From an uncultured Actinomycetes bacterium (lineage in GTDB: Bacteria; Actinomycetota; JAICYB01), in contig CAVXYW010000001.1 in NCBI GenBank assembly GCA_963766295.1, positions 4,364 to 68,363 of the forward strand: a stretch of DNA of 64,000 bases. Direction: 5' to 3'. Position 1 is the first letter of the stretch. Each line of letters starts with the position of its first letter. Both the position numbers and the translations under genes were made by a program. Under the pieces are notes generated by a model that worked only from the letters and a program-made list of their open reading frames with translations, was not told where the DNA came from and ran no database searches. Shown here piece after piece: positions 6,803 through 55,169 of this stretch.

Positions 6803-6803
6803 C

Positions 6804-8042: not shown

Positions 8043-9025
8043 AGCCGGACCTCAGTCGGAAACGCCGGCTCGGTTCCTCCGGCGTCGAGGTACCTCCTAT
8101 CGGATTGGGGACGGCACCTCTCGGCGGCTGGCCTCAAGCCGAGCCACGCGACCAAGGGATCGCAACGGTCCGGCGCGCTTCGGATGCAGGACTACGGCTC
8201 TTCGACACCGCTCCTTACTACGGCTTCGGCCAAGCCGAGGAATATCTGGCCGCCGTGCTTCCATCGATAAATCGCGACGACTTTGTGCTATCGACGAAGG
8301 TCGGACGGTTGCTCGAGCGATCCGAGCGCGACGACAGCTTCTTCAAGGACGCGCGCCCCTTCCGGCCGGTGCTCGACTACTCGTACGACGGCACGATGCG
8401 ATCACTCGACGAAAGCCGGCAGAGGCTCGAACTCGATCGCATCGACATCGCGCTGATACACGATCCAGACGACCATCACGAAGAAGCGTTGGAAGGCGCC
8501 TATCGAGCGCTCGATGATCAGCGCTCGGAAGGAGCGATCGGCGCGATCGGTGTCGGTATGAACTGGTCCGAGCCCCTGGCTCGTTTCGCGCGCGAGGCAG
8601 ATTTCGACTGCTTCTTGCTCGCGGGCCGGTACACCCTTCTCGAGCAGGACTCTTTGGACGACCTGATGCCCGCGGTAACGGAGCGCGGGATGTCGGTCAT
8701 CGCCGGCGGTGTCTACAACAGCGGACTTCTCGCCGATCCCGGCCCGCAAGCGATGTACAACTATGCGCCGGCTCCCTCAGAGCTGATCGACAAAGCGCTC
8801 GCGATCCGTGATGTCTGCAGCTCGTTCGAAGTTCCGTTGCGGGCAGCAGCCATTCAATTCCCGTTGGCGCACCCCAGCGTCGCAACCGTCGTCGTGGGCG
8901 CCCGGACGCCGGCCGAGGTGGACGACAACCTCGAAATGATGGCTTGCGAGATCCCGTCCGATCTCTGGGCGGCCCTCAAGGAACGAGGATTGATGCGCGA
9001 GGAGGCTCCGGTCCCTGCGGACTAG
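8039..9025 (+). CDS. aldo/keto reductase
   Basis: TTG 8039 overlaps the upstream stop. RRLGSSGVEVPPIGLGTAPLGG, FDTAPYYGFGQAEEYLA and IDIALIHDPD are AKR-like. Only the last third of track ORF 6890-9025 is real. Confidence 0.8.
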   Translation: MKPDLSRKRRLGSSGVEVPPIGLGTAPLGGWPQAEPRDQGIATVRRASDAGLRLFDTAPYYGFGQAEEYLAAVLPSINRDDFVLSTKVGRLLERSERDDSFFKDARPFRPVLDYSYDGTMRSLDESRQRLELDRIDIALIHDPDDHHEEALEGAYRALDDQRSEGAIGAIGVGMNWSEPLARFAREADFDCFLLAGRYTLLEQDSLDDLMPAVTERGMSVIAGGVYNSGLLADPGPQAMYNYAPAPSELIDKALAIRDVCSSFEVPLRAAAIQFPLAHPSVATVVVGARTPAEVDDNLEMMACEIPSDLWAALKERGLMREEAPVPAD

Positions 9026-9138: not shown

Positions 9139-11445
9139 CTGAGGAAGCTCAGGTCGGCAGCAGCCGTCGCGTTTGGCACGTTTCTCGCGGTAGCCGCCCT
9201 AACAACACGCGCTTCGGCGGCTCCGCTGCCTTGCCCCGGGGGCGATGGAGACGAGGCGGCTCTCATCACGGCGATCGAAACCGCCAATACGAATGGGCCG
9301 ACGGTGGACATGATCGATCTTGCGACCGATTGCGTCTATTCGTTCACCGCGCCTTATGCGTCCGCCAGCGGTTTCGATTACTGGTACGGGCCCAGCGCGC
9401 TGCCGTCCGTAGCCAGCACGATCATCATCAACGGCAACGGTGCAACGATCGAACGTGGGGCGCCGGCGGAGAACCCATTCCGGCTCTTCTTCGTCGGCGC
9501 TGATCCCGAGGACGCCGACACATTCGGGTACACCTCCCCCGGGCCGGGGAATCTGACCCTGCGCGAACTAACGCTGCGCGGCGGCCTGGCGAAAGGCGGA
9601 GACTCAGGCAACGGCGGAGGCGGTGCCGGCATGGGTGGAGCCATCTTCAACCAGGGCAACGTCACGCTCGACGGCGTAACCATCACCGAGAACAGCGCCG
9701 AAGGAGGGTCCTCAGGTGTCGTACCCAGCAACGCCGGAGGCGGCGTCGGACAAGACGCGCAAGCAACAGGCGGCGGAGGCTTCGACAGCGGATTCACCGA
9801 CGGAGGGGGCGCAGCCGGAGGCGCGGGAGACTTGGGGACCGGAACGGGCGGTGGCGGCGGGGGGCTTCGCGCCTCGGAAGATGGCTCCCCAGGCGGCGCG
9901 GCCGGCGGCGCCGGCGGCGGACCGTCGACCGGGACCGGCGGCAAGGGCGGAGCGATCAACGGTGGTTCTGGAGGAAACGGCAGCGGCGGCGGCGGCGGCC
10001 CCAGCCCCGTGGCGGGTGGCGGCGGGGCCGGCGGTCCGTTCGGATTCGGCGGTGCGAATGGTGCGCTGATCGGAGGGAGTGGAGGCGGGGGCGGAGTCGG
10101 CGGGGGCGGAGCGGCGTCGGGTCTGGGATTGGCAGGCGGCGGAGGCGGTTTCGGCGGGGGTGGCGGCGCTAACGGGGCGGTACCGATCCCGGGCGGAGGC
10201 CTCGGCGGGTTCGGCGGGGGCGGAGGCGGCGGGTTCGGCGGCAGCGGCGGTGGCACCGGCGGGTTCGGCGGAGGGAATGGCGGCAACGGCACTCCCCCGG
10301 ACGACCTTACCGCAGGCACCGGCGGAGGCGGCGCCGGCATGGGCGGCGCGATCTTCAACATGCAGGGCTTCCTCATCGCCGAGAACTCAACCCTGTCCGG
10401 CAACATCGCGCTGGGCGGAGGCGCACTTGCAGGCGGCGAGTCAGGAAGTGGCCTCGGCGGCGCGATCTTCAATCTCAATGGGCTCGTCGACGCCGACTCG
10501 GTAACGATTGCGTTCAACAACGCGACCAGCGGCGGAGGCACGGGTCTCTACAACCTCGGCTACTTGGGCGACGACGCCGGCGATGAAGACGGACACTCGT
10601 ATGCCGCGACAGCCATTATCAGGAACTCGATCTTGGCACCGGGGACCCTGTGTCCGGGTTGCTTCGATGTGTTCTCCAATGCACCGGCGGTTGTGTCCAA
10701 TGGCCTTGCGAATACGGCCACAGCGTTCGTCGACGTAAGCGATCACGATCTCGTGACGACGCAGGACACGGTGGGCGGCGGAATGATCGACGGCTCTCCG
10801 ATCACGGCTGATCCGAACCTCGGCCCCCTACTAGACAACGGCGGACCCACTCCGACGCACGCGCTTCTCGGGATCGGCGAACCCGGTGAAAGTGCAGCGT
10901 TCGACGCCGGGGAAACCGTGCTCGCAGCAGACCAGCGAGGCGAGTCGCGGCCGAGCGGTGCCGCCGACGATATCGGCGCGTTCGAGGTGCAGATCGCCGG
11001 CACAACGCCGACTCCTGCGACTCCGACTCCAGGTGGCGGCACGCCGACGCCCACCGCCAGCCCAGCGATAACTCCGACCAGTACCCCGACAGGTAGCTCC
11101 ACGCCGATACCCGCCGGCAGTTCCATCTCGCCGGCAGCTCTATCGCCGAGAACCCCGGATCCCAGACTGCCCATCACGGGTTTCGACGGTTCAGAGACGC
11201 TCGGGCAGGTCGGCTCCGGCCTCTTATTGGCCGGCTGGGGCTTGGTAAGTTTTTCGCGCGACCGCCGACGAGCCGTCCCGAGCGCGGTCCCTGTTATGGC
11301 ATCAGCGCAGATCCATCAGGTCGAACCGCAGGTTCACGAGGTTGAGCCACAGGTTCACGACGTTGAACCGCAGATTCACAACGCTGAACCGAAACCAAGG
11401 CCGTTGAGCGAGGGCGATCTCCTTCTGCCGTATTGGCCTGAGTGA
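9139..11445 (+). CDS. secreted glycine-rich parallel beta-helix surface protein (CSLREA-like N-terminus, choice-of-anchor-Q-like C-domain, P/T linker, LPITG plus TM anchor plus repeat tail)
   Basis: In-frame upstream of the track start (GTG 9304) lies a signal peptide, RKLRSAAAVAFGTFLAVAALTTRASA/APLPCPG. The body has long GGxGG tracts. Later comes ADPNLGPLLDNGGPTPTHALL...DQRGESRPSGAADDIGAFEV, then a PT-rich linker, LPITG (11167-11181), a hydrophobic stretch and RDRRR. The only start candidate before the signal peptide is CTG 9139, 4 nt after GGGAGGG. Confidence 0.7.
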   Translation: MRKLRSAAAVAFGTFLAVAALTTRASAAPLPCPGGDGDEAALITAIETANTNGPTVDMIDLATDCVYSFTAPYASASGFDYWYGPSALPSVASTIIINGNGATIERGAPAENPFRLFFVGADPEDADTFGYTSPGPGNLTLRELTLRGGLAKGGDSGNGGGGAGMGGAIFNQGNVTLDGVTITENSAEGGSSGVVPSNAGGGVGQDAQATGGGGFDSGFTDGGGAAGGAGDLGTGTGGGGGGLRASEDGSPGGAAGGAGGGPSTGTGGKGGAINGGSGGNGSGGGGGPSPVAGGGGAGGPFGFGGANGALIGGSGGGGGVGGGGAASGLGLAGGGGGFGGGGGANGAVPIPGGGLGGFGGGGGGGFGGSGGGTGGFGGGNGGNGTPPDDLTAGTGGGGAGMGGAIFNMQGFLIAENSTLSGNIALGGGALAGGESGSGLGGAIFNLNGLVDADSVTIAFNNATSGGGTGLYNLGYLGDDAGDEDGHSYAATAIIRNSILAPGTLCPGCFDVFSNAPAVVSNGLANTATAFVDVSDHDLVTTQDTVGGGMIDGSPITADPNLGPLLDNGGPTPTHALLGIGEPGESAAFDAGETVLAADQRGESRPSGAADDIGAFEVQIAGTTPTPATPTPGGGTPTPTASPAITPTSTPTGSSTPIPAGSSISPAALSPRTPDPRLPITGFDGSETLGQVGSGLLLAGWGLVSFSRDRRRAVPSAVPVMASAQIHQVEPQVHEVEPQVHDVEPQIHNAEPKPRPLSEGDLLLPYWPE
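11308..11396 (+). repeat. about four 21-bp tandem repeats (coding, heptad xHxVEPQ)
   Basis: cagatccatcaggtc / gaaccgcaggttcacgaggtt / gagccacaggttcacgacgtt / gaaccgcagattcacaacgct / gaaccg encodes QIHQVEPQVHEVEPQVHDVEPQIHNAEP. Confidence 0.85.
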
Positions 11446-39774: not shown

Positions 39775-40401
39775 ATGGACGGCACTCAGAAGAAAGAAAA
39801 GCGGCGTTTCGGCGCGGCTTTGGTGGTTCTCGTCCTTGCCGTATCGGCATTGGCGATCGGAATGACCGATGCACTCTTCACCGACACGCAGTCGGTCACC
39901 GGAAACACGTTTACGACGGGGACGGTGGATATATCAGCGACACCTTCGTCGGCCGTGCTGACGGCCTCGACGATGGCCCCCGGCGACCGTGTCGAGAACT
40001 CGCTGACCGTCGCCAACGATGGCAGCCTCGAGCTGCGTTACGCGATCCAGCGGTCGGCCACGAACGCCGATCTGAAGGCCCTGCGTGACTCCCTGGGGCT
40101 GAGGATTGCAGTTCGCGGTGGCGGCGCTTGCAACTTCCCGTATTACACAACCGCCGGCTCGCCTACGGGCATCGGCGATGACACCGAGATATACGCGGGG
40201 ACAGGGTTCCCTAACTCTCCTGCGAACACCGTCGGTGACGTCGCTCAAGGAAGCCAAACAGGCGATCGCACACTCGCCGCAGCGACGAACGAAGTGCTCT
40301 GCTTCTCCGTTGTTCTGCCGCTGTCGGCAGGCAACTCATTGCAGTCTGCATCTACCACTGCGACGTTCGACTTCGTCGCGGAGCAGACGGCTAACAACTA
40401 G
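39775..40401 (+). CDS. TasA/CalY (camelysin-like) family secreted subunit with SipW-dependent-class signal peptide
   Basis: A strong SD (AGGAGG) precedes the gene. The N-terminus is KKEKRRFGAALVVLVLAVSALAIGMTDALFTDTQSVTGNTFTTGTVDIS. The C-terminus ends TATFDFVAEQTANN. Confidence 0.7.
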   Translation: MDGTQKKEKRRFGAALVVLVLAVSALAIGMTDALFTDTQSVTGNTFTTGTVDISATPSSAVLTASTMAPGDRVENSLTVANDGSLELRYAIQRSATNADLKALRDSLGLRIAVRGGGACNFPYYTTAGSPTGIGDDTEIYAGTGFPNSPANTVGDVAQGSQTGDRTLAAATNEVLCFSVVLPLSAGNSLQSASTTATFDFVAEQTANN

Positions 40402-40421
40402 ACGATGACCGTACGGACGTG

Positions 40422-40463
40422 GTCCGAGCACGCATGTCTGCGTGCTCGGACCCTTCCCTTTCC
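40422..40463 (+). terminator. 12-bp perfect hairpin with C/T-rich tail between the TasA-like gene and sipW (terminator/attenuator)
   Basis: gtccgagcacgc-atgtct-gcgtgctcggac followed by ccttccctttcc. Confidence 0.5.
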
Positions 40464-40608
40464 AGTTAGCGTCCCCGTCGGCTTCGCTACTCGGCATGAA
40501 GGGCCGTCGCCGGCGACTAGCTTGCGAAGGATCGTTGCCGTCGCCCCGGCGACCCTCGACCAAAGAGTCGACGCATATGCCACCGTGCTCATTTCCCGAG
40601 AAACAAAC

Positions 40609-41574
40609 GTGTCAAGGGCCTCCGCGCTGAAGCGAGCAGTGAGAGTGCTGGCCATGGTCGTGGTGGTCTGCGGCTGCGTCCTTTTCGCGCTACCGCTCAT
40701 CGGGCTGCCCTTCGGGTACCGGACCTATGTCGTAGCCAGCGGAAGCATGTCGCCTCATGCGCAGGCCGGTGACGCCGTTCTCCTCAAGGAGGCGCCGCAT
40801 GAAGAGATCGCCGTGGGGGACGCGATCGCATTCCAACCACTGCGATCCAGTGGTTTGACGATGCACCGAGTGATCGACATCCGCACTGTCGATGGAAAAC
40901 TCCACTTCCGCACGAAGGGCGACGCGAACGCCACGCCCGACCCCAACCTCGCCCCGGCCGCGAACGTGCTGGGACGGGTGGATGCGCGTGTTCCCTCTCT
41001 CGGTCGCGCCCTGGTGTTCGCCACCGAGAGAACGGGCCGGATGCTCCTCGTCGTTGTGCCTGCCCTCGTCCTGATCGCACGAGAAATCTTCTGGCTGCTG
41101 CAGGGCCGGGTGAAGGCGTCCGAGCGCACGCTCAGAAAACCGCGGATGGCCCTGCGTCGGTCGTTAGTCGCCACCGCGATGGTGGCGGTCAGCGTCGTCG
41201 GTTTAACGGTGCCGGCCGCCGCGCGCTTCACCGAAGGCTCCACCGTTGGCACAAACACGCTCGGCACGGGCCAGGTGAATCCGCCCAACCTCACCAGCGC
41301 GGTCGCCGACCTCCTGTTGATCTGCAAGATCACTCTGACGTGGACGGCCCCCGTCACGGGCGTGGCTCCCGATGGGTACGACGTCTACCGCAGCACGACC
41401 AATGGCGGGCCTTATTCCTTTGTCAAACATGTCGGCAATGTGACCACCACGACCGATACGAGCTTGAATCCCAGCACCACCTACTACTACGTCTTGAAGG
41501 CGTCGAGGTCTTCCTGGAGAAGCGTCAACTCCAACCAGCGCTCAGCTGCGTCGGCTTTTCTGCTCTGCCTCTAG
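40609..41574 (+). CDS. sipW: SipW-type (ER/archaeal-type) signal peptidase I fused in frame to a second SipW-class signal peptide and an FN3-like domain
   Basis: GTG 40609 is the proposed start. The order is TM, VVASGSMSP, MHRV, TKGDANATPD, C-terminal TM and basic linker. Then come MALRRSLVATAMVAVSVVGLTVPAAARFTEGSTVGTNTLGTGQV and LTWTAPVTGVAPDGYDVYRSTTNGGPYSF...YYYVLKA. No stop lies between the parts. Confidence 0.65.
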   Translation: MSRASALKRAVRVLAMVVVVCGCVLFALPLIGLPFGYRTYVVASGSMSPHAQAGDAVLLKEAPHEEIAVGDAIAFQPLRSSGLTMHRVIDIRTVDGKLHFRTKGDANATPDPNLAPAANVLGRVDARVPSLGRALVFATERTGRMLLVVVPALVLIAREIFWLLQGRVKASERTLRKPRMALRRSLVATAMVAVSVVGLTVPAAARFTEGSTVGTNTLGTGQVNPPNLTSAVADLLLICKITLTWTAPVTGVAPDGYDVYRSTTNGGPYSFVKHVGNVTTTTDTSLNPSTTYYYVLKASRSSWRSVNSNQRSAASAFLLCL

Positions 41575-41876: not shown

Positions 41877-44036
41877 ATGCCCATAGCGATCCTCGACTCT
41901 CACCGCGAGCTGGAATCTGTAGCACGCTCGTTCCTCGAGAAGGCCGGCGCTCGCGCCGACTCTCGTGCGCTCCTCGACGCCACGGACGACGCCCTGCCGT
42001 CGTTCTGGAAGGAGATCGCCGGGCTAGGCTGGCTCGGCCTTCACATCTCCGAAGATTTCGGCGGCGCAGGTTACGGTCTCCCCGAGCTAGTCGTCGTCCT
42101 GCAGGAGATGGGACGCGCCGACGCACCCGGACCGTTCCTCCCGACGGTGATGGCGTCGACAACGATCGCGCGCACGGCAACGAAGGAGCAGCAAGCCGAG
42201 CTACTCCCATCTCTGGCCGACGGAAGCAAGATCGGTGCCCTCGGTTGGACGAACGCACTCGAGCTCAAGGCCGGCAAGCTCTCCGGCGATGGCGGTCTCA
42301 TCCTCGGCGGCAATCTCGCCGACTTGTTCGTCCTCACGGTAGGAGCTGATGTCGTCATCGTCGATCGCGACGCGGCCGGGCTCGAGGTCAACAGCACCGG
42401 CCAATTCGACCAAACGCGACGCAACGTGCGAATTACCGCCAAAGACGTTGCTGTGAGCGAAGACCGGCTAATCCCAGATGCTGCATCTGTAGCTATCGAC
42501 GTCGCACGCGCGCTCGCAGCGGCCGAAGCCGCCGGCATCGCGCAAGAGTGCGTCGAGCGGGCAACGGAGTACGCGAAGGTGCGTGAACAGTTCGGCCGCG
42601 TCATCGCGACGTTCCAGGCCGTCAAGCACCACTGTGCGAACATGCTCGTCAACTCAGAGCTCGCGACGGCAACGACATGGGATGCGGCGCGCGCATCCGA
42701 GAACGACCCCGAGCAATTCCGTCTAGCCGCCGCCGTCGCCGCCGTCGAGTCGATCCCGACCGCCCTCGTGAACGCACAGCTCAACATCCAGGTGCACGGC
42801 GGTATCGGTTTCACGTGGGAGCACGACGGCCACATGCTGCTCCGGCGCACGTCGTCACTCGTCGCCTTCGTCGATGCAGACGACGCGGCGCGCGACATCG
42901 TCGACATGCGTTCTTCAGGACTTTCGCGCGAGTTCGGCATCGATCTGCCTCCGGAAGCCGAAGAGCTCCGCACGAAGACGCGCAAAGTGGCCGAAGAGAT
43001 CACCGCTCTACCGACCGATCAGCAGCTGGCCAAGATGGTCGAGAACGGCTACATCCAGCCGCACTGGCCCAAACCGTGGGGACTCGAAGCGAAAGCACTC
43101 GAGCAGCTCGTCATCGACGAAGAGTTCAAGCGCGCGAAGATCCACCGTCCGAGCTACGGGATCACGGCGTGGAACATCCTGACCGTCATCCAGCACGGCA
43201 CACAGGATCAGGTCGAGCGCTGGGTGAAGCCGACGCTCATGGAGGAGCTCGTTTGGTGCCAGCTGTTCAGTGAACCCGACGCCGGTTCGGACGCTGCCGC
43301 CGTGAAAACGAAGGCGGAGAAGGTCGAAGGCGGCTTCGTCGTCAACGGTCAGAAGGTGTGGACGTCCGGCGCGCAGTACTGCCACAAGGGGCTCGCAACG
43401 GTACGCACCGACCCGGACGCTCAGAAGCACGCCGGCGTCACGACGGTGGTCATCGACATGCACGCCGAGGGCGTCGAGGTTCGTCCGCTGCGCGAAGCGT
43501 CGGGACACTCGATGTTCAACGAGGTTTTCTTCGAGAACGTGTTCGTTCCGGATGAGGACGTTGTCGGTCCGGTTAACGGTGGATGGACCGTCGCCCGCGC
43601 AACGCTGGGCAACGAGCGCATCAGCATCGGCGGCGGTGTCGGCGTCGGCATCGCGATCGACCTCGTTTCGATCTACAACGAGCACGCCAAGGACAAGGAT
43701 GGTATGAAGACGGCCGTCGGCAAGCACGTCGCCGAAGAGCAGACGCTCAAGCTGCTCAACCTGCGATCGGCCGAGCGCGCCGTCGCCGGCGGGGAGCCGG
43801 GCCCGGAAGGCAACGTCACCAAGCTCGTTAGCGCCGAGAACATGCAGCGGTCGTCCGACCTCGCCTTGAAGATGGCCGGACCGGAGACCGTGTCGATCGA
43901 GGGCATCGGCGGCCTGGTGTCGAACATCCACATCTTCAGCCGGGCCATGACGATCGCCGGAGGTACCTCGGAGATCACGCGCAACCAGATCGGCGAGCGG
44001 ATCCTCGGCCTGCCGCGTGATCCGCTGATCAAGTGA
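41877..44036 (+). CDS. tandem (two-module) acyl-CoA dehydrogenase
   Basis: The first module has GWLGLHISEDFGGAGYG, IATFQAVKHHCANM and IQVHGGIGFTWEHDGHMLLRR. The second has LFSEPDAGSDAAAVKTKAE, NGQKVWTSGAQY and a C-terminal GGTSEITRNQIGE. Confidence 0.85.
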   Translation: MPIAILDSHRELESVARSFLEKAGARADSRALLDATDDALPSFWKEIAGLGWLGLHISEDFGGAGYGLPELVVVLQEMGRADAPGPFLPTVMASTTIARTATKEQQAELLPSLADGSKIGALGWTNALELKAGKLSGDGGLILGGNLADLFVLTVGADVVIVDRDAAGLEVNSTGQFDQTRRNVRITAKDVAVSEDRLIPDAASVAIDVARALAAAEAAGIAQECVERATEYAKVREQFGRVIATFQAVKHHCANMLVNSELATATTWDAARASENDPEQFRLAAAVAAVESIPTALVNAQLNIQVHGGIGFTWEHDGHMLLRRTSSLVAFVDADDAARDIVDMRSSGLSREFGIDLPPEAEELRTKTRKVAEEITALPTDQQLAKMVENGYIQPHWPKPWGLEAKALEQLVIDEEFKRAKIHRPSYGITAWNILTVIQHGTQDQVERWVKPTLMEELVWCQLFSEPDAGSDAAAVKTKAEKVEGGFVVNGQKVWTSGAQYCHKGLATVRTDPDAQKHAGVTTVVIDMHAEGVEVRPLREASGHSMFNEVFFENVFVPDEDVVGPVNGGWTVARATLGNERISIGGGVGVGIAIDLVSIYNEHAKDKDGMKTAVGKHVAEEQTLKLLNLRSAERAVAGGEPGPEGNVTKLVSAENMQRSSDLALKMAGPETVSIEGIGGLVSNIHIFSRAMTIAGGTSEITRNQIGERILGLPRDPLIK

Positions 44037-45528: not shown

Positions 45529-48500
45529 TCACGGGTCGCAGCCACCCGGGCAGGTGACCTCCAATATCTCCGCGCTGAACGAATGGTCGAGGTCTCCTCC
45601 AGGGTTGCTCACCGCAAAGCCGCGGAATCCGTCGGGAGCATCGCCAGCAACATCAACCACCACGATGAGCCTGTCGTATTCGCCGTCCGGGAGCACGACG
45701 GACTTGGTCGTGATCCCCTCACCGAAGTCCACCCACGCATTAGAAGAGAAGTTCTCACCATGGACGACCATCACTTGATCGTTGGCGCCCTGCGTGATCG
45801 GCGATGGATTGACACCACTGATGCCGGCCTTGGGGCAGATCTCCTCCGAGATGTCGATCGGGAAGATATCGAACACGATGCGGGATCTGAACTCGATCCC
45901 TGCGGGACACGTGATCCGGCTGCCCTCTTCCGGACTATTCATCGAGTGACCGGTGCAGCTGGGCGGAGTAAGTATGGAGCACTCGACATTGACGCCCCAG
46001 TTCTGAGCCTTGAATCCCTCTGGCAGAACGATCTTAAGATCGTCCCAGTCATCAGGCGTCTCCTGGTTTACGACGGTGCCGTGTACGAGCCCGTTGGCCG
46101 TGTCGACACTTATCCGCTGGCAGTCCGGTTCGCAGGTGTCGTCGGTTTCAACGTGTGCGGCCAACTCCTTCTCGATGAACAGCGATGCGACTGTGCTCTC
46201 CCCTCCGCATCGGCCATCGTTGTTCACTGAGCCCGCGCAATGGAAGACCTCAACGTGTGTCGGTTCACCGCTTTTGAGCCCACCGGGCGTGATCTTGTAG
46301 GACGATTCGTCGATGGTCTTCTCGAAGTTGTTTGCACTGGCGCACTCGTTGTGATGCGGAGAGATACAAGCGACCAGCGTCTTCGGCATGTCCTCGATGG
46401 TTGCCCGGAGCAAAGCGAGTCCCGCGCCGGCGTTAGTCGAGAACTCTAGTCCCTTCCCTTCCGAAGGACTCGAGTAGGTCACCTCCGTCTTGGTGCTGCT
46501 GCCGGGATGAGTCTTGCCAGTAGTGCCGCGGATGTCGCGGTGGATCCTTATGTCTATATCTGCAGGCGGCCTTTCGTAAACGGCTTTCATGAAAGAAATG
46601 TTGTCGAGCTTCGAGTTGTCTCGGGTTCGGCGCAGGAACATCAACGGCTCAGGCGTCCGGTTGCCCTGCTCAAAGATCGTATGGACGTGGATGTCCTCGG
46701 TGTTGAATTCCTTCGGGTCTCCGGCAGACTGCTTCCGAAAGTCCACGTGACGGAGATTGTTCGCCTGCGCGTAGATGGTCTCGAATTCCGAGTCGAAGTC
46801 GTCGATCAATACACCGTTGCGCCCATCGAGCAGGTCGCGCTTGTCCTCATCAGCGTCGGTGACGAGGAACTCGACTCGTCCGATGGCGAAGGGACCGGTG
46901 TCAAGACTGAAGCCCTTGTCGACCAAGAACTCGTCGCCACTTGTTTCCGTCGAACCCAGGACGAGGTCAACCTTGGGCGGGAGGTTAGTCAGCGTAGCGT
47001 CGATGTTGTGCGAACTTCCGATGATCGGGTCAGGGAAGTTGTGCGCGTGGGCGATGATCGTGCCGATCGCCTCGTTGGCCGTGTAGTGAACCTCTTTAGC
47101 GTCGCGGTTGTATGTGAGGTCGACACTGCTCGGGAGATCATCGATGTCCGCTTCGATTCGCTGGGTTTGAATAGGCGATCCAGCTTCCTGAGTCTGCGTG
47201 AACGTGCGGATGCCGAAGTCATCACCCGCGCTCTGGATGTCGATGTGGAGAGGATTCCCCCAACCCACCTCGGCCCCCGTGATACCGCCGATATGCACCT
47301 CGGCCAGGTACGGCTCACCATCGTCGAGGCGGTCGATCAGATGAATGCCATCCTCGTCTGCAGAAACGCAGGGGATGCAGCTATCTAGATCCGAGCCGAT
47401 ACGAGCGTCCAGGCGCCCGAGCGGTGGGCCGGTGATGACTGCCGTCATCTCCTTACTCACGTCATCGAGGTTGACGACGATGTGCGTTGGCAGGTCGGTG
47501 AGCGTGACTTGCAGTTCCTTCGCGTCGTTGAATAGCGGCGTCGAACTCGTCACGTCCAGCGTGAGCTCCCCGAGCACCGACAACGAGTCGTAGGTCAAAC
47601 GCGAGGCCGTGCTCTCGTCATCGATCCCGCCTGGGAGGCCCGGGCCGCCGGGGGCGAAGCCGAGGACGCCATCGTCACTACTGACCCCTCCGACTGGAGG
47701 GAAGTACTTCACGTGAGCGGTCTCCGGCAGGTTCGTCATCACGCCATCGATCGTCAGCTGCTGCACGACCGGCAAATTGTCGACGACCGAGTTGCGGGCG
47801 ATCTGCGCGTCGATCGTGAACAGCGCCTCGGTGTGCTCAATGTCCACCGAGATGGGCGCGCCCCATCCCAGGCTCGCGCTCTTGACCTCGGACGCGCGCA
47901 AGAACACCTCGTAGGGTTGGACAGTAGACGACACGCTCTCGCCTGGAGGGATTGGGTCGAAGAACAACAGGCCATCGCCCGATGGGATCTCATTCTCAGG
48001 TCCGTTGGTCAGAAGTAGCTCGACCTGACCCACTTTTCCGCCCGTCATCGTGATGTCGAACGTCTTATTACCGGCGTTCATTACCGTTCCGAGGCCGGTT
48101 GGAACGTCCGTTGCTTCCAGGTGTGCCTTGGTCGCCCGTCCCATGATGAACTTGGTTGAGGTGAGGTCGAAGATCACCGAGGCGATCTTGTCGGACCCTC
48201 GGTACACCGCAGCCTGCTTGTCCTTCTCATAACTGAGGAAGACAGTCTCGGGCAGATCACGGAGCTTCCCGATGACATTGGCGTCCGGTGTCGAGATCGA
48301 CACGTCGAATGGTCCGGGGGTGTGTTTGAGATCGACGCTCATCACGTCGCCCCAGCCCACAGCCGAGGAGCCAACTCCGAGCAGGTGCAGATCGGCCACT
48401 GTTGCGTTGTCGGTCAAGCTGGCGCTCAGATACTGGATCGGGTCGGACGGCGGTGCAGGGAGATCCGCGCCTGGCGTGAACTTCGCGAAGCGGATGGTCG

Positions 48501-49581
48501 CCTCGCCGATCTTTCCTGTGGTGGTGAACTTGGCGTTAGTTGCGGTGTCCTTCGCGAAGCTCGCCGCTGTCGGTAGGTCCACTAGATGTGCGTTCACATG
48601 CGTGGTGTCCTCGCCGGCCGTCAACGATGTGACGTCTACCTTTGTGTCGTGGATGGGAGCCGAAGTTGCGTAGGTAACACCCGCCGCGCTGAAGGTTAGG
48701 TCGGTCGTTGGTGGGAGGTTCGCCAGCCCGACGAGGGCCGTCGTCTTCTTCGCGCCGGCTTCGTTCAGGAACGCCAGGCCGAGCTCGCTGGGTGTGGGCG
48801 TTGTGATGTGCGCCTTATATGTCGAGTTCCCGAGAATGTCGATGATCGCCTGCAGCTTCGATGGCACCGGCGCGAACTTGGCGGCAACCTGAGTCGGATC
48901 CACTACGGCGGTGCCGACCTTGTTGAATGCAGCGCCGAGGATCGTGAGGTCGGAACCCGCTCCGGTTGGGAACGCGTCGACGGAAAGTCGTGTCGGTGCC
49001 GATGAGACCTGCGTCCGGAAAATCAAAGGAGTCTTCGTGTTGCATGCGTTGAACCCAAACGCCACACGGCTCGGGTCGGCGGATCCGTTCGGTGCAAGAA
49101 CCGCTTGGACCTGCGCTGGGAAGGCTCCCAGACCGATCTTGGTCACGAGCATCGTGAGGTTGGTCGTGTTAGTTACGCCCGGGATCGGCGGAATCGGTGC
49201 GACGAGTACCGTCGCGTCCGGCAATGCCGAGCCTCCGAGGTCCACCGGAGTCGGGATCGCATAGCGCGCCCTAACGACCTTGCTCGTGGCGCAGCCTGAT
49301 CCGCCCAACGTGTGGATCTCATACGAAACAGGATCGAGCGCCTGATTTAGTTGACCCACAAGCGGCGCAAGGCTCGGCAGTGACACCTTGAGATCGGCTT
49401 TCACCGCTGGTGTTTCGCTCGACCCAATGAAAAGACTGATGGATATGGTGAGCGCCATCGCTGTGGCTGCTGCCACTACCAGGACGATCACACTGGCAAC
49501 GACAACGCCCCCGCGCGTTCGTAGCCGCCGACGTATGCCTGAGCCAAGAGCTGAATCAAAAGAACCTGCGGATCGCCGCAC
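45529..49581 (-). CDS. 1350-aa N-terminally anchored extracellular protein with unrecognised ~190-aa repeats, a Cys-rich region and a C-terminal IPT/TIG-like domain
   Basis: GTG 49581 lies 4 nt after AAGGGAG. A TM (VVVASVIVLVVAAATAMAL) follows. The recurring pattern is GWG..(I/V)..D(I/L).H....F followed by (D/N)LP..V.L.Y. The C-terminus reads ISGVNPSPITQGANDQVMVVHGENFSSNAWVDFGEG...FAVSNPGGD. Confidence 0.8.
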   Translation of the reverse strand: MRRSAGSFDSALGSGIRRRLRTRGGVVVASVIVLVVAAATAMALTISISLFIGSSETPAVKADLKVSLPSLAPLVGQLNQALDPVSYEIHTLGGSGCATSKVVRARYAIPTPVDLGGSALPDATVLVAPIPPIPGVTNTTNLTMLVTKIGLGAFPAQVQAVLAPNGSADPSRVAFGFNACNTKTPLIFRTQVSSAPTRLSVDAFPTGAGSDLTILGAAFNKVGTAVVDPTQVAAKFAPVPSKLQAIIDILGNSTYKAHITTPTPSELGLAFLNEAGAKKTTALVGLANLPPTTDLTFSAAGVTYATSAPIHDTKVDVTSLTAGEDTTHVNAHLVDLPTAASFAKDTATNAKFTTTGKIGEATIRFAKFTPGADLPAPPSDPIQYLSASLTDNATVADLHLLGVGSSAVGWGDVMSVDLKHTPGPFDVSISTPDANVIGKLRDLPETVFLSYEKDKQAAVYRGSDKIASVIFDLTSTKFIMGRATKAHLEATDVPTGLGTVMNAGNKTFDITMTGGKVGQVELLLTNGPENEIPSGDGLLFFDPIPPGESVSSTVQPYEVFLRASEVKSASLGWGAPISVDIEHTEALFTIDAQIARNSVVDNLPVVQQLTIDGVMTNLPETAHVKYFPPVGGVSSDDGVLGFAPGGPGLPGGIDDESTASRLTYDSLSVLGELTLDVTSSTPLFNDAKELQVTLTDLPTHIVVNLDDVSKEMTAVITGPPLGRLDARIGSDLDSCIPCVSADEDGIHLIDRLDDGEPYLAEVHIGGITGAEVGWGNPLHIDIQSAGDDFGIRTFTQTQEAGSPIQTQRIEADIDDLPSSVDLTYNRDAKEVHYTANEAIGTIIAHAHNFPDPIIGSSHNIDATLTNLPPKVDLVLGSTETSGDEFLVDKGFSLDTGPFAIGRVEFLVTDADEDKRDLLDGRNGVLIDDFDSEFETIYAQANNLRHVDFRKQSAGDPKEFNTEDIHVHTIFEQGNRTPEPLMFLRRTRDNSKLDNISFMKAVYERPPADIDIRIHRDIRGTTGKTHPGSSTKTEVTYSSPSEGKGLEFSTNAGAGLALLRATIEDMPKTLVACISPHHNECASANNFEKTIDESSYKITPGGLKSGEPTHVEVFHCAGSVNNDGRCGGESTVASLFIEKELAAHVETDDTCEPDCQRISVDTANGLVHGTVVNQETPDDWDDLKIVLPEGFKAQNWGVNVECSILTPPSCTGHSMNSPEEGSRITCPAGIEFRSRIVFDIFPIDISEEICPKAGISGVNPSPITQGANDQVMVVHGENFSSNAWVDFGEGITTKSVVLPDGEYDRLIVVVDVAGDAPDGFRGFAVSNPGGDLDHSFSAEILEVTCPGGCDP

Positions 49582-49776
49582 TGTGCTCCCTTCCGCGCTC
49601 GCCGCGATACGGCGCGCGAACGGGACAGAAACACGCGCAGGCCCTTGGGTGGTCTCTGCGGTCTTTGCTCCCTGACTGAACGTCAGGGAGCGTGCGGCCC
49701 TTCTGTCTCGCTACTGAGCACAGCGTATACCGATCGCCGGCGGTGTCTATGCCGTTCGGCACACTCAAAAGTCGAA

Positions 49777-51684: not shown

Positions 51685-51747
51685 GACCGACGAGCGTAGC
51701 GCGGACCGGCCCGGGTGTAGACCAGCGCCGGCTGAACTCCGCTCGGG

Positions 51748-53239
51748 CTACGCGCAGCCGCGGCCGCGCATGTCCGCGGACGACGACGCTCCGCGCTCGA
51801 GCCAGTACGCGGACCGGTGATAGAAGGACAGAAGGTTCGCGACGCACTTTCCTTCGATCCTGTAGGGCACGTTGCCGGCTCGCGGGTTGGCCGGGTCGGC
51901 GGCGGCCGCGCCCGCGTCGAAAGTTCCGGCGCCGATGGAGTAGCCGTCGGCCGATCCGTCGAAGGTCAGTTGCGTGAGGCGCCGGGTCGCCGACGTGTCC
52001 TGCTTGAGGTAGCGGTCGAACCAGGCCACAGAGAGGTGCAAAGACGTCTGCTCGCCGTACCGGCTCGCCGGGAACGACGCCGGGAAGGGCTGGTAGCCCC
52101 ATTCGTAGTGCGTACTAGCCCGGGGCGTCACTGACATCGTGTCGATCCCGGCTCCCATGAGCTGGGTGAACGCCCCCAGGTGCCCGGCCCCGTCGGGGGC
52201 CGAGTCCGGGCTCTTCGGGAAGCGGTGGCTCGGGGAACGCGTAGTCGGTCGAGAAGAACAGCGTCGGTGCGTGGGCGGAAGCGATCTCCGCATCGGCGTA
52301 CCGCTCGTCGAAGTTGTCGTAGGCGATCACAGCCTTCACGCGCCGGTCCCGCTGACCGATCCCGGTGGCAGCGATGGCACCAAGCGAATGGCCAGCGATG
52401 CCGACACGCTGCCGGTCGAGCGACGACCAAATCGGGTTGAACAACAGCGTGCCTTCCGCGTTGGCGCCCGTCGCCCACGGATGAGGCGAGCTCGGGGTGG
52501 AGAAGAAGAAGTCGATAGCCGACTCGAAGCCGGGCTCGTTCTCGAGCGGCATCGCGCCGCACCCGATGTCGGCGCAATCGATCGAGCCATCTCGGTTGTG
52601 CGAGAAGGTTTCCGAGTCACCCTGCCCCTGCGGGTCGATGATCATCACGATGTAGCCGGCCTCGGCCATGCTCTCCGCGAACCACAGGTTCACCTCGTTG
52701 AACGAGAAAAGACCGGGCGAGAAAACGATCCCGGGCCGGCTCGCCGGCGACGCGCTCGGGTTGGGCGAGAAGAGCCGCGCGTACAGTTTCGCGCCGGTCT
52801 TCGAGGTGAACTGGAATCGCTGCGTTTGGCCCCGGCCCGCGGCCTCCCAATCGGACGGCGAGCGGAACGGATCGGTGACCTTGGCGGGCGGCAACCGGGT
52901 TGGGTTGAGCCGCGGACGCGTCGGCTCTGCGAGCAGCTCGGCAAGCTGGGCCGGCAGCACGCCGGCGGCCTCGGCGTTCTCGGCGGCCCAGGTCCGCAGG
53001 AAGGCCGGGTTGGACAGCTCGTCGTACTGACGCTGGTAACCGCATGCGACGTTGCCGAGGTCCCGGAGCATCCAGGCCGCCAGGTCCGCCGGGTCGACGT
53101 CCGGCACGGGAGCCTCGCAGGCAAACGGCTCCGGCGGCGGCGGGACGGCGGCTCTTGCCGGTGCGAGGCTCACCGAAGTGACGAAGGCCAGCAGTGCCGC
53201 CGTGATGCAAGCAGCGCGGTGCCTCATCCGTTTCCCCAT
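51748..53239 (-). pseudogene. secreted alpha/beta (serine) hydrolase, split by one frame shift near 52213-52240 (or an assembly indel)
   Basis: A signal peptide (MRHRAACITAALLAFVTSVSLAPARA) and the GIAGHSLGA elbow lie in track ORF 52115-53443, which degenerates after TLFFSTDYAFPE. The continuation (FPKSPDSAPDGAGHLGAFTQLMGAGIDTM...HYEWGYQPF...WFDRYLKQD) is in track ORF 51748-52293, in another frame. Confidence 0.6.
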
Positions 53240-53325
53240 CCCCGCCGTCGTGTGCAGCTCCTTTCTTGTACACGATGATCGGGATGCGGGGCCGGTCAGC
53301 CGATAAGACCGAAGCGCGGCTGGCC

Positions 53326-53387
53326 CTCCTACGATGCATCGGACGCCCTCGTAGCTCAGGGGATAGAGCACCGGTTTCCTAATCCGG
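53326..53387 (+). repeat. 62-bp direct repeat, copy 1 (upstream region plus 5' half of tRNA-Arg)
   Basis: Aligns by hand to 54955-55016 with 5 mismatches in 62 nt. The 33-nt core tagctcaggggatagagcaccggtttcctaa is identical. Confidence 0.85.
53345..53387 (+). pseudogene. truncated tRNA-Arg(CCU): 5' half only
   Basis: The acceptor 5' strand, D arm and anticodon arm (ccggt-ttcctaa-tccgg) are present. No T arm or acceptor 3' strand follows; the next bases form an unrelated hairpin, cggttcg-gtg-cgaaccg. Confidence 0.75.
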
Positions 53388-53578
53388 TTCGGTGCGAACC
53401 GCTGACCTGCACGAACGCGAATCTGCGCAGTTCGCGACCGCAATTCGACTGACCGACAAGTACCGTCATTGACCGCAGTTGGCCGCTGCTACGGGCACGC
53501 GGAGAACACAAATTCTCCAACGGCATCTGACCATCGAGCGAACGACAAAGCGCCCGAACAAGGTCTGCCGCCTATCCT

Positions 53579-54940
53579 GTGGCCGGAGCCAGTTCACACG
53601 GTGGGGTGGAATTGGAAGTCAGGTACGCGAAGACACGGGACGGCGTGAAGGTCGCGTATTCACGGTTCGGTTCAGGTGTCCCGCTCCTCTTCGTCGGTGA
53701 TTGGTGGAGTCACGTCGAGCGCGACTGGGATCTTCCTCCCCTCGCTGCGGTCTACGAACGGGTCGCGTCCTTCGCCGACACGACGATCTTCGATCTCCGC
53801 GGCACGTCCCTCTCCGATCCGATCCCGGCGGGAAGCACACCGAGCTTCGACAACTGTCTGGACGACATGCTCGCCGTGCTGGACGCGACGGATCATCCGA
53901 ACGCTGCCATCTTCGGGTCGGCCGCCGGCGTCCAGCTCGCTCTGCTGTTCGCGGCGAGGCACCCCGAACGCGTGTCAGCTCTCATCCTGTGCAACGGATA
54001 CGCCAGATTCCTCCAGGCAGACGATTATCCGTGGGGCGTGCCGCCCAACTTCATGGATGTCATGCGCCAGGCCTTTGAGGACACATGGGGAACACTCGAT
54101 ATGGCGCGGATGAGCGGCCCGGGCGTCGATTGGACACCCCAGACGTTGGAAGCAGCAGCGGCGAATATCCGGGCGACGGCTTCACCGACGACCGCTGCCT
54201 CATACTTCCCGCTTCTGTACGAAAACGACGTCCGTCACCTCGTCCCGAGCGTCGGCACCCGCACGTTGCTCATGCATTCGGTCGCGAATCCGCTCATCCC
54301 GGTTCAGCACAGCCGCTACCTCGCGACGTACCTCGCCGATGCACGGCTCGTCGAACTCCCCGGCCGGGACTTCGCGTTCTGGGGTGAGGATCGGGACCGG
54401 ATCGTCGACGCCATGCAGGAATTCCTCACCGGCACGCAGCACTTAGAGGCTGCAACGCGGAGGCTCACAACCGTCCTCTTCAGCGACATCGCGAGCTCGA
54501 CCGACGAAGCGGTACGACGAGGCGACAGTCGGTGGGCCGAGCTGTTGGCGCATCACGACGCGATGGTGAAGAGCCAGCTCGACCGCCACCACGGGAAACA
54601 GGTCAAGCACACGGGTGACGGCATCATGGCCACCTTCGACGGCCCAACGCGCGCGTGTTTGTGCGGCCTGGCGCTCCGTGACGGAGCGCGGAAGATGGGA
54701 CTCGAGCTCCGGGTCGGCGTCCACACCGGAGAAGTCGAGGTTCGCGGCGCGGACATCGGTGGCATCGCGGTCCACGTCGCTGCACGCGTACAAGCACACG
54801 CCGAGCCCGGCGAGGTCCTTGCTTCCCGGACGATCCCCGACGTCGTCGCAGGATCGAGCATCCAGTTCGAGAGCAGGGGCGAACACGAACTCAAGGGCGT
54901 CCCAGGGAAATGGCTGCTCTACGCCGTCACCGACCGTTAG
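53579..54940 (+). CDS. alpha/beta-hydrolase-fold domain fused to class III adenylate/guanylate cyclase (LipJ/Rv1900c-like architecture)
   Basis: The N-terminal half is hydrolase-like (VRYAKTRDGVKVAYSRFGSG...IFGSAAGVQLALLFAARHPERVSALIL). The C-terminal half reads RRLTTVLFSDIASSTD...KHTGDGIMATFDGP...RVGVHTGEVE...GIAVHVAARV. The start is uncertain (53579 or 53606). Confidence 0.8.
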   Translation: MAGASSHGGVELEVRYAKTRDGVKVAYSRFGSGVPLLFVGDWWSHVERDWDLPPLAAVYERVASFADTTIFDLRGTSLSDPIPAGSTPSFDNCLDDMLAVLDATDHPNAAIFGSAAGVQLALLFAARHPERVSALILCNGYARFLQADDYPWGVPPNFMDVMRQAFEDTWGTLDMARMSGPGVDWTPQTLEAAAANIRATASPTTAASYFPLLYENDVRHLVPSVGTRTLLMHSVANPLIPVQHSRYLATYLADARLVELPGRDFAFWGEDRDRIVDAMQEFLTGTQHLEAATRRLTTVLFSDIASSTDEAVRRGDSRWAELLAHHDAMVKSQLDRHHGKQVKHTGDGIMATFDGPTRACLCGLALRDGARKMGLELRVGVHTGEVEVRGADIGGIAVHVAARVQAHAEPGEVLASRTIPDVVAGSSIQFESRGEHELKGVPGKWLLYAVTDR

Positions 54941-54954
54941 CCCAAGGGGCAGAC

Positions 54955-55016
54955 CTCGTACGATGCGTCGGTCGCCCCCGTAGCTCAGGGGATAGAGCAC
55001 CGGTTTCCTAAACCGG
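54955..55016 (+). repeat. 62-bp direct repeat, copy 2 (part of the intact tRNA-Arg and its upstream region)
   Basis: See copy 1. The two copies are offset by 1629 bp. Confidence 0.85.
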
Positions 55017-55046
55017 GTGTCGGAGGTTCGAGTCCTCCCGGGGGCG
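54974..55046 (+). tRNA. tRNA-Arg (anticodon CCU)
   Basis: Acceptor GCCCCCG/CGGGGGC, D arm GCTC-AGGGGATA-GAGC, anticodon arm CCGGT-TTCCTAA-ACCGG, T arm GGAGG-TTCGAGT-CCTCC, discriminator G. Confidence 0.9.
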
Positions 55047-55169
55047 CGGGCGGGTCGCTATGCTGGCCTTCGCTAACGGCGATCTGCCGTCAACTTCCCT
55101 CCCCCTAGAACTGATGCAAACGCACGTGTACGGCTGCGACGGTTCTTTCCATCGAGCGGGAGCGCATCT

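Follow-up and report, generated by a model that had tools for sequence, protein, structure and literature searches.

The gene and its tandem repeat

The window analyzed here, a stretch of 64,000 nucleotides from an uncultured Actinomycetes bacterium (contig CAVXYW010000001.1), carries on its minus strand a gene for a 1350-amino-acid (aa) protein, which is probably an extracellular repeat-stalk-type protein and is built on a previously undescribed repeat of about 160 aa. The open reading frame (ORF) is present as a preliminary description of this DNA had given it (Table 1). The GTG at 49581 is favored as the start codon because it is preceded by the ribosome-binding site GGAAGGGAG and because of the alignment with two full-length orthologues from metagenomes, P0002 (40% identity) and P0003 (34%); their N termini align from M1-R2, and M1, R2, and G6 are conserved in them. 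The public record P0001 gives this protein 1309 aa, from Met42 on, so that it begins 41 codons later and inside the hydrophobic segment; this annotation is probably too short. A spurious ORF was ruled out by the full-length orthologues, the coding-type G+C content (GC) at third codon positions (GC3), and the ribosome-binding site.

The preliminary description had aligned three super-repeats of about 190 aa by eye. The repeat is real and stronger than it had appeared, but there are four full units (155 to 198 aa) and a partial fifth rather than three. A profile-profile self-comparison with hhalign, based on the three-orthologue alignment, gave E=1.3e-24 at a shift of one unit and E=5e-16 at a shift of two units. 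Plain self-BLASTP of the 1350-aa protein gave no off-diagonal match, and the repeat is visible only to profile methods. Inside the unit there is a sub-repeat of about 50 aa (positions 2-66 align with positions 52-119, E=8e-8). The consensus of 496 units collected from the family described below is ..ada.I.dLP..l.ltld..aG.vtY.gSapIdritlda.s..plfgrAt.l.a.l.glPt.ltl.l...g....ldA.ggpIG.iEl.atsGp..lP....g.dGv.l.D...g.f.laARv.GLr.a.v..gp.i.ldl.tagGPF.vda. The GWG..D..H..F motifs that had been noted were found at residues 409, 572, and 773, and both they and the (D/N)LP strands fall on orthologue-invariant columns: W410, G411, D417, L418, H420, G423, P424, and F425 in the first unit; G572, W573, G574, and H583 in the second; and the LP pairs at 289/290, 336/337, 443/444, 618/619, 697/698, and 816/817. 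The third unit (R3) holds a low-confidence Gly/Pro insert of about 30 aa (residues 628-656; model confidence below 50 at model residues 573-597) and carries a CxxC at 735/738.

Table 1. Features of the gene and its product in window coordinates, and strand pairings within the repeat unit in unit positions (HMM, hidden Markov model; AF2, AlphaFold2; pLDDT, predicted local distance difference test; DCA, direct-coupling analysis)
Feature	Position	Strand	Basis or remark
Complete coding sequence, 1350 aa, GTG start	45529..49581	-	stop codon 45529-45531; ORF list
Shine-Dalgarno-like GGAAGGGAG	49586..49594	-	4 nt 5' of GTG; read directly in DNA
Signal region, residues 1-43: Arg-rich n-region, hydrophobic core, AMA/LT	49453..49581	-	A41, A43, L44, T45 conserved in orthologues
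Conserved N-terminal β domain, residues 60-280	48742..49404	-	C97 and C180 invariant in 19 sequences
Repeat unit R1, residues 281-435	48277..48741	-	unit HMM E=9e-51; hhalign self-matches; AF2 pLDDT >90
Repeat unit R2, residues 436-608	47758..48276	-	unit HMM E=4e-57; AF2 pLDDT >90 save one loop
Repeat unit R3, residues 609-806	47164..47757	-	unit HMM E=2e-55
Repeat unit R4, residues 807-995	46597..47163	-	unit HMM E=4e-48; GWG region degenerate
Partial fifth unit (996 to ~1075) and Cys-rich β module, residues 996-1250	45832..46596	-	hhalign: 1003-1074 aligns to unit starts
Putative terminal Ig-like domain, residues 1251-1350, ends CPGGC	45532..45831	-	sub-threshold CoaZ match
DCA ladder	[1-17]×[24-40]		i+j about 41
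DCA ladder	[22-40]×[51-67]		i+j about 90
DCA ladder	[49-67]×[76-92]		i+j about 142
DCA ladder	[74-92]×[116-130]		i+j about 206
DCA ladder	[124-131]×[137-143]		i+j about 267
DCA ladder	[104-110]×[145-152]		i+j about 252

The N terminus, MRRSAGSFDSALGSGIRRRLRTRGGVVVASVIVLVVAAATAMA/LTISISLF (the slash marks the proposed cleavage site), has a hydrophobic core of about 15 residues followed by a conserved AxA/LT, and the hydrophobic segment spans residues 24-53. This segment had been read as a transmembrane anchor. The segment itself is there, but its role as an anchor is doubtful, as it looks like a Sec signal peptide with a conserved cleavage motif. Most family members have textbook signal-peptide ends (...PSAASA/EP, ...PAAHA/QT, ...NSAQA/QT, and ...STARA/QV). 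Judged from these sequences, the segment is more likely to be a cleavable Sec signal peptide than to anchor the protein in the membrane, the alternative being an uncleaved signal anchor. Residues 44-1350, past the proposed cleavage after A43, are acidic (pI 4.56) and amount to 138 kDa. The N-domain that follows is the best-conserved part of the family; its HMM matches most of 157 members, and in the exhaustive family search described below most matches cover positions ~20-484 of the search profile. In the AF2 model it consists of strands throughout, with a pLDDT of 80 to 90.

The Cys-rich module that caps the repeats recurs in many family members. About 14 cysteines had been estimated for this region; we counted 10, or 12 with the C-terminal pair, and 16 in the whole protein. 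C1072, C1080, C1225, and C1249 are invariant in 19 sequences, and the invariant cysteines of the N-domain and the cap fit an extracytoplasmic protein. For the last 100 residues, the proposed IPT/TIG-like domain did not hold up: the Pfam TIG profile (PF01833) gave no match at E≤10 on residues 1251-1350, where Pfam returned only the weak Ig-like matches Qn_am_d_aIII (E=0.008) and Big_13 (E=0.15). The NCBIfam profile CoaZ_rpt_PGGG (NF058597) matches residues 1250-1295 over profile positions 1-47 of 88, with E=1.6e-4 and 21.6 bits against a cutoff of 30 bits, and it matches 2 of 19 members at E≤0.01 (best E=2.3e-9). Based on these profile matches, the terminal domain is probably a diverged choice-of-anchor-Z Ig-like domain. 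We also considered whether the protein is a sortase substrate and rejected this, as its LPET motifs (residues 443 and 618) are internal strand kinks and the C terminus (...TCPGGCDP) has no sorting signal.

Family, predicted fold, and topology

An exhaustive HMMER search over 1.84 billion cluster representatives found 221 representatives at E≤1e-3, of which 89 were at E≤1e-30, whereas word-indexed homologue searches had returned just 6 to 9 proteins. The apparent extreme rarity of the family is thus partly a search artefact. We parsed the architecture of 157 retrieved proteins, among which there are 496 full units. The common architecture is an N-terminal hydrophobic signal and a conserved N-domain of about 220 aa, followed by 1 to 15 units (mode 4), frequently with a Cys-rich module and occasionally with a terminal domain. 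The unit HMM counts four units in each close orthologue, 10 in P0005, 7 in Patulibacter defluvii P0004, and 5 in Patulibacter brassicae P0006. In P. defluvii, there are three consecutive paralogues of 1764, 1450, and 1596 aa (L002 10001-24825, JAWZSQ010000001.1), with 7, 5, and 6 units and without Pfam match. The named members, all annotated as "hypothetical protein," come from Patulibacter (Actinomycetota, Thermoleophilia) and from one Candidatus Dormiibacterota metagenome-assembled genome (MAG), and the remainder are metagenome contigs. In several distant members (P0004-P0006, P0038, and others), a low-complexity segment rich in Gly, Leu, and Asn separates the signal peptide from the N-domain, within the N-terminal ~40-90 residues. 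The UniRef label of P0006 is "DUF320 domain-containing" (chaplin-like); Pfam gave no such match at E≤0.1.

Profile searches place the repeat, the N-domain, and the cap in no curated family. Pfam had no match in the 1350-aa protein (E≤1) or in 19 members (E≤0.01) and no recurrent match in 39 unit pairs (E≤10). Likewise, nothing came up when all PDB sequences were searched with a profile, and in NCBIfam there was nothing on the repeat, the sole match being the sub-threshold CoaZ_rpt_PGGG on the terminal domain. The preliminary description had recognized no enzymatic, RTX, Rhs, cadherin, or LPXTG signature, and these searches bear it out: RTX, Rhs-YD, cadherin, and pertactin-type β-helix profiles had no recurrent match in the 39 unit pairs, with RHS_repeat (0.17) and Pertactin (0.2) each matching 1 of the 39 at chance level, and there was no cytoplasmic or enzymatic domain in the 19 members. 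The motifs YEIHTxGG and DILxxSxYK, which are invariant in the three close orthologues, had no relative in any GTDB species representative, and an accession-based literature search returned nothing.

Two AF2 models were made, one of residues 60-1250 from 19 sequences and one of residues 281-608 (two units) from an in-register alignment of 39 non-overlapping unit pairs. The first has a mean pLDDT of 82.7, a predicted template modeling score (pTM) of 0.60, and 61% strand, with turns mostly of 2 to 4 residues and no linkers at the unit boundaries. The two-unit model reached a pLDDT of 91.3 and a pTM of 0.86. When the long model was searched against the PDB with Foldseek, all matches were long antiparallel sheets of a generic kind, namely, the ApoB100 β-belt, LptD, and porins, with E between 1.5e-4 and 1e-2 and a template modeling (TM) score of ≤0.12; for LptD, E was ≥2.6e-3 and TM was 0.06 to 0.08. 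With the two-unit model, the PDB matches were WD40 blades, porins, the teneurin shell, and the CPAP G-box (best E=0.036, TM ≤0.18), with no match to TamB, LptA, or LptC. In BFVD nothing was significant, the top matches being a Tupanvirus Chorein-N protein (E=0.02, TM 0.14) and then MORN-repeat proteins. Among solved structures and viral models, to which this statement is limited, the models have no structural neighbor (TM ≤0.19). The suggestion of a possibly new repeat fold is therefore supported by the confident AF2 models, by the lack of a Foldseek neighbor, and by the lack of any Pfam, NCBIfam, or PDB-sequence match to the repeat.

Independently of AF2, we derived the topology from the 496 units (Neff 467) by mean-field DCA. 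The strongest couplings line up as clean antiparallel ladders (Table 1), and they confirm that the unit is an up-and-down meander of about six long strands. A parallel β-solenoid was rejected, as the ladders run at constant i+j and the weak Foldseek matches are all antiparallel meanders. The motifs DLP (8-10), GS-P (28-31), GLP (58-60), IG (83-84), and GLR (124-126) are in register across the ladders, and DSSP interrupts the strands at several of them. The strands are amphipathic, with a mean Kyte-Doolittle value of +1.70 on the hydrophobic face and -0.81 on the polar face. Couplings off the ladders (2-13, 17-39, 24-37, and 13-32) join halves of the same or of adjacent strands, which would require the sheet to double back on itself where the kinks line up. 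Judged by DSSP, DCA, and amphipathicity, the unit would be a two-layer ribbon, that is, a meander sheet folded on its long axis. At about 4.8 Å per strand, this would give roughly 3 nm per unit and 15 to 20 nm overall.

Base composition and genomic neighborhood

The preliminary description had also noted that the DNA of the gene looked poorer in GC than its flanks and had proposed horizontal acquisition. GC is indeed lower: the gene has 0.602, whereas the remaining long ORFs of the window have a median of ~0.634, and the poorest 1-kb stretch, at 46001-47000, has 0.577. The deficit is small, however, and lies in the first and second codon positions (GC1, which is 0.60, and GC2). GC3 is 0.74, which equals the window median (window genes, 0.66 to 0.86), and it stays at 0.73 to 0.79 along the gene beyond the first 150 codons. 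The deficit therefore reflects the amino acid composition, which is rich in T, S, D, I, and N. We computed the synonymous-codon likelihood conditional on the amino acid sequence and compared it with that of 38 neighboring genes; the gene has z=-3.1, within the neighbors' range of -3.1 to +6.1, and the effect size is small (-1.065 versus -1.019). Nor did the codons ata, tta, and aaa, which had been pointed out, prove to be enriched: there is no in-frame TTA in the gene, ATA stands at 0.083 (window, 0.076), and AAA stands at 0.12 (window, 0.195). With GC3 and synonymous codon use inside the range of the neighbors, the argument from composition for a horizontal origin fails. The base composition is native-like, with no sign of foreign origin, and the lesson is that low GC is here an effect of amino acid composition and should not be taken for horizontal transfer.

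The gene lies between housekeeping genes without nearby mobility genes, as had been described. Past its stop codon are PurT, a fused acyl-CoA dehydrogenase, a thioesterase, and a β-carbonic anhydrase, the last convergent and 12 bp from the stop; on the other side, 195 bp upstream and on the same strand, is an ABC-F gene. The borders of the gene itself are free of mobility genes, flanking repeats, and tRNA. A scan for sigma-70 promoters found nothing, and terminator-like matches were at chance level. In the closest GTDB genome, the uncultured Actinomycetes MAG L008, the ABC-F protein is 95% identical (93% in DNA), and homology stops exactly at the ABC-F stop codon (window 49772). The syntenic position (L008 8527-13251) holds an unrelated 1574-aa Pkinase-nSTAND1-WD40 gene, and the repeat gene is absent downstream of ABC-F. 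The ABC-F frame of L008 appears to be split into two ORFs (6001-7347 and 7052-8530), possibly by an assembly frameshift. On the far side of ABC-F, the segment up to a tRNA-Arg(CCT) (54974-55047), at 51715-54973 of the window, also differs from L008 (4631-5970, 1.3 kb unrelated); in the window it encodes a hydrolase-like ORF and an α/β-hydrolase fused to a nucleotide cyclase. As both flanks of ABC-F differ from L008, ABC-F is a conserved gene between two variable segments.

The orthologues, too, have different neighbors. P0002, the closest orthologue, is the only gene that its contig, L001, has in common with the window, and an IS30-like transposase (HTH_38 and rve; L001 9576-10631) lies 3.5 kb downstream of it. 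The GC of the L001 orthologue is 0.665 and that of its contig is 0.664. Because of the lack of synteny and the patchiness, gain, loss, or relocation of the gene must have occurred. The gene is thus stand-alone, patchily distributed, at a variable locus, and compositionally native.

Elsewhere in the window, three further loci deserve mention. On the plus strand at 9304-11445 there is a 713-aa ORF of 27% Gly (GGxGG runs), without Pfam match, whose C terminus, with LPITG, a hydrophobic stretch, and RDRRR in this order, has the classic form of a sortase sorting signal; based on this protein, the organism appears to use monoderm-type cell-wall anchoring. At 39775-41574 (plus strand), 4 kb from the repeat gene, a gene of the Peptidase_M73 (camelysin/TasA-like) type stands directly before a 389-aa ORF with a signal-peptidase-I-like "GSMSP" and a C-terminal β-rich extension. 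The pair resembles a TasA-SipW fiber operon, the SipW assignment having been made by eye. The fused acyl-CoA dehydrogenase (41877-44036, plus strand) is a 719-aa double enzyme with duplicated N- and C-terminal domains, and its end overlaps the start of the thioesterase by 4 nt.

Proposed role and comparison with known systems

We propose that the protein is an exported rigid β-ribbon stalk that presents a Cys-rich/Ig-like head, with a fibrillar-adhesin-like or spacer role, a model to which we give an even chance. It would be exported in an acidic form of ~138 kDa if the signal peptide is cut after A43. The chain would form one continuous rigid rod, not beads on a string, made of an antiparallel up-and-down β-meander with strands of 17 to 20 residues, each kinked midway at one of the Pro/Gly motifs. 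These kinks would let the sheet fold into its two layers and bury one hydrophobic face. Each sub-repeat would correspond to one long hairpin of ~50 aa, and three hairpins plus a variable loop would make the ~160-aa unit. From one end to the other, the predicted order is the conserved N-domain, 4.5 units, the disulfide-rich cap, and the Ig-like (choice-of-anchor-Z-type) end domain. As a passive extracellular stalk in soil Actinomycetota and Dormibacterota, the protein may hold its distal head about 15 to 20 nm from its base, and across the family the length could be tuned by the number of units. The export part of this reading is supported by the family-wide signal-peptide-like N termini, the invariant Cys pairs, the CoaZ-type terminal domain, and the absence of a cytoplasmic or enzymatic domain in 19 members. 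The tandem paralogues in P. defluvii and the variable copy number, both typical of surface repeat proteins, support the surface stalk, and a location at the surface with an adhesive or spacer role would be in line with this. The LPITG protein at 9304-11445, which points to a monoderm wall with sortase anchoring, also speaks for this reading.

Fibrillar adhesins are the closest comparison. This class has been defined by tandem stalk domains, at least one known adhesive domain, and cell-surface attachment (PMC8286594). Like its members, the protein is long, exported, and mostly tandem repeat, with a variable unit number, a distinct small end domain, and paralogue expansion. Its 4.5 units follow each other without spacer, which fits a tandem stalk, yet they match no listed stalk Pfam family. 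Unlike fibrillar adhesins, it would form one continuous β-meander rather than a string of discrete Ig-like domains, it has no known adhesive domain, stalk Pfam family, or anchor, and its polarity would be an N-proximal base and a C-distal head. Because two of the three defining features, the adhesive domain and the anchor, were not found, we do not file it as a fibrillar adhesin (PMC8286594). By analogy, it may still work most like the stalk of one. A rod made of consecutive antiparallel hairpins is also seen in MORN repeats, the CPAP G-box/TCP10, and SasG G5-E, and hairpin-sheet proteins were among the weak Foldseek matches (4bxr with the two-unit model and the MORN proteins of BFVD; TM ≤0.19). 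Those proteins have a short period (about 23 aa), a single layer, and polar faces, whereas here the period is ~50/160 aa, the 17- to 20-aa strands are kinked, and one face is strongly hydrophobic. With the choice-of-anchor Z repeat proteins (NF058597), a surface-protein family, the protein shares its C-terminal ~100 aa, which match the first half of CoaZ_rpt_PGGG; unlike in that family, the domain occurs as a single copy without an array, makes up <8% of the protein, and stays below the cutoff.

Several points weigh against our proposal. Neither a known adhesive domain (Pfam E≤1 for this protein, E≤0.01 for the 19 members) nor a wall anchor (C-terminal LPXTG, SLH, LysM, or lipobox) was found, and a cleaved signal peptide would leave surface retention without explanation, although almost half of the catalogued fibrillar-adhesin-like proteins also have no known anchor (PMC8286594). 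The two-layer packing and the rod length, as said above, are deduced from DSSP, DCA, and amphipathicity. Finally, the weak top Foldseek matches are lipid-handling β structures (the ApoB100 belt, LptD, and a Chorein-N protein), and this keeps a groove-type function in play. In such a function, the protein would be a bridge-like conduit of the AsmA/TamB/RBG or Lpt type, with a V- or taco-shaped hydrophobic groove along which lipids or other hydrophobic molecules slide from the membrane through the wall. AsmA-like and RBG proteins have an N-terminal transmembrane helix as inner-membrane anchor, Chorein-N and AsmA-like domains, and a continuous open hydrophobic groove, and the strand number per unit has been described as variable (PMC10345924). 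The resemblance to AsmA/RBG proteins (TamB, YhdP, and VPS13) and to the Lpt jellyroll lies in a multistrand antiparallel unit plus a loop (about six strands here, five in RBG), a long continuous β structure with a hydrophobic inner face, a length set by repeat number, and an N-terminal hydrophobic segment; an axis-folded meander with one strongly hydrophobic face is of the same class of topology as the β-taco and β-jellyroll bridges. However, the Foldseek matches in question are insignificant (TM ≤0.14, root-mean-square deviation 17 to 48 Å), the two-unit model matched none of TamB, LptA, and LptC, and there is no sequence or fold match and no Pfam signal of AsmA, Chorein_N, DUF490, or OstA_N in 19 members (E≤0.01) or 39 unit pairs (E≤10). 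The family N termini resemble cleavable signal peptides rather than anchors, the strands bend sharply at conserved Pro/Gly kinks, the protein ends distally in a Cys-rich/Ig-like head and not in a membrane-docking domain, and the DCA cross-layer contacts suggest that the layers touch. A range of 1 to 15 units is hard to square with spanning a fixed gap, and the host is apparently monoderm, with a sortase substrate of its own. We therefore regard a conduit as improbable. Slightly less probable again is a more far-reaching version, in which a new fold with a continuous hydrophobic V-groove would be a Terrabacterial wall-spanning counterpart of AsmA/RBG/Lpt, of independent origin, that moves lipids or hydrophobic molecules across the thick monoderm envelope.

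The preliminary description had suggested an adhesin or an S-layer-like protein, which the architecture makes plausible. As to the second half of that suggestion, a self-assembling envelope component (an S-layer, sheath, or fiber subunit) instead of a solitary stalk would suit a large, acidic (pI 4.6), exported, all-β protein that has a CoaZ-type surface domain and no anchor motif, and oligomerization could also satisfy the amphipathic sheet. On the other hand, the gene lies slightly below the window average in the optimality of its synonymous codons, unlike a very highly expressed S-layer gene; AF2 models the monomer confidently as a compact fold (pTM 0.86); neither SLH nor any other domain for S-layer attachment is present; and such extreme variation in copy number, together with tandem paralogues, is seen more typically in adhesin-like proteins. 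We consider this alternative unlikely. The same holds for recent horizontal acquisition with a foreign origin visible as low GC, where our judgment concerns recent transfer as such, the compositional argument itself being refuted. The lower GC with its 1-kb minimum, the end of L008 homology at the ABC-F stop with an unrelated kinase-STAND-WD40 gene in place of ours, the conserved motifs without relative among GTDB representatives, and the IS30-like transposase near the L001 orthologue would all fit a recent arrival. They are set against a GC3 at the window median that hardly varies beyond the first 150 codons, a deficit in GC1 and GC2 that reflects amino acid composition, rare-codon use at or below the window norm, gene borders free of mobility genes, repeats, and tRNA, and an L001 orthologue whose GC equals that of its contig.

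Large exported repeat proteins shape attachment, aggregation, and envelope building in soil bacteria, and to our knowledge those of uncultured Actinomycetota and Dormibacterota are essentially unannotated. The protein described here defines a family of about 220 clusters, with a ~160-aa unit of three kinked hairpins, a conserved N-domain, a Cys-rich cap, and a confident model without a match among solved structures. The family is ready for a new domain entry and is a target for structural biology, and P. defluvii is a cultivable organism in which it could be studied. If the predicted architecture is correct, the family would offer a clean example of a stalk made as a continuous β-ribbon, as opposed to the beads-on-a-string type.

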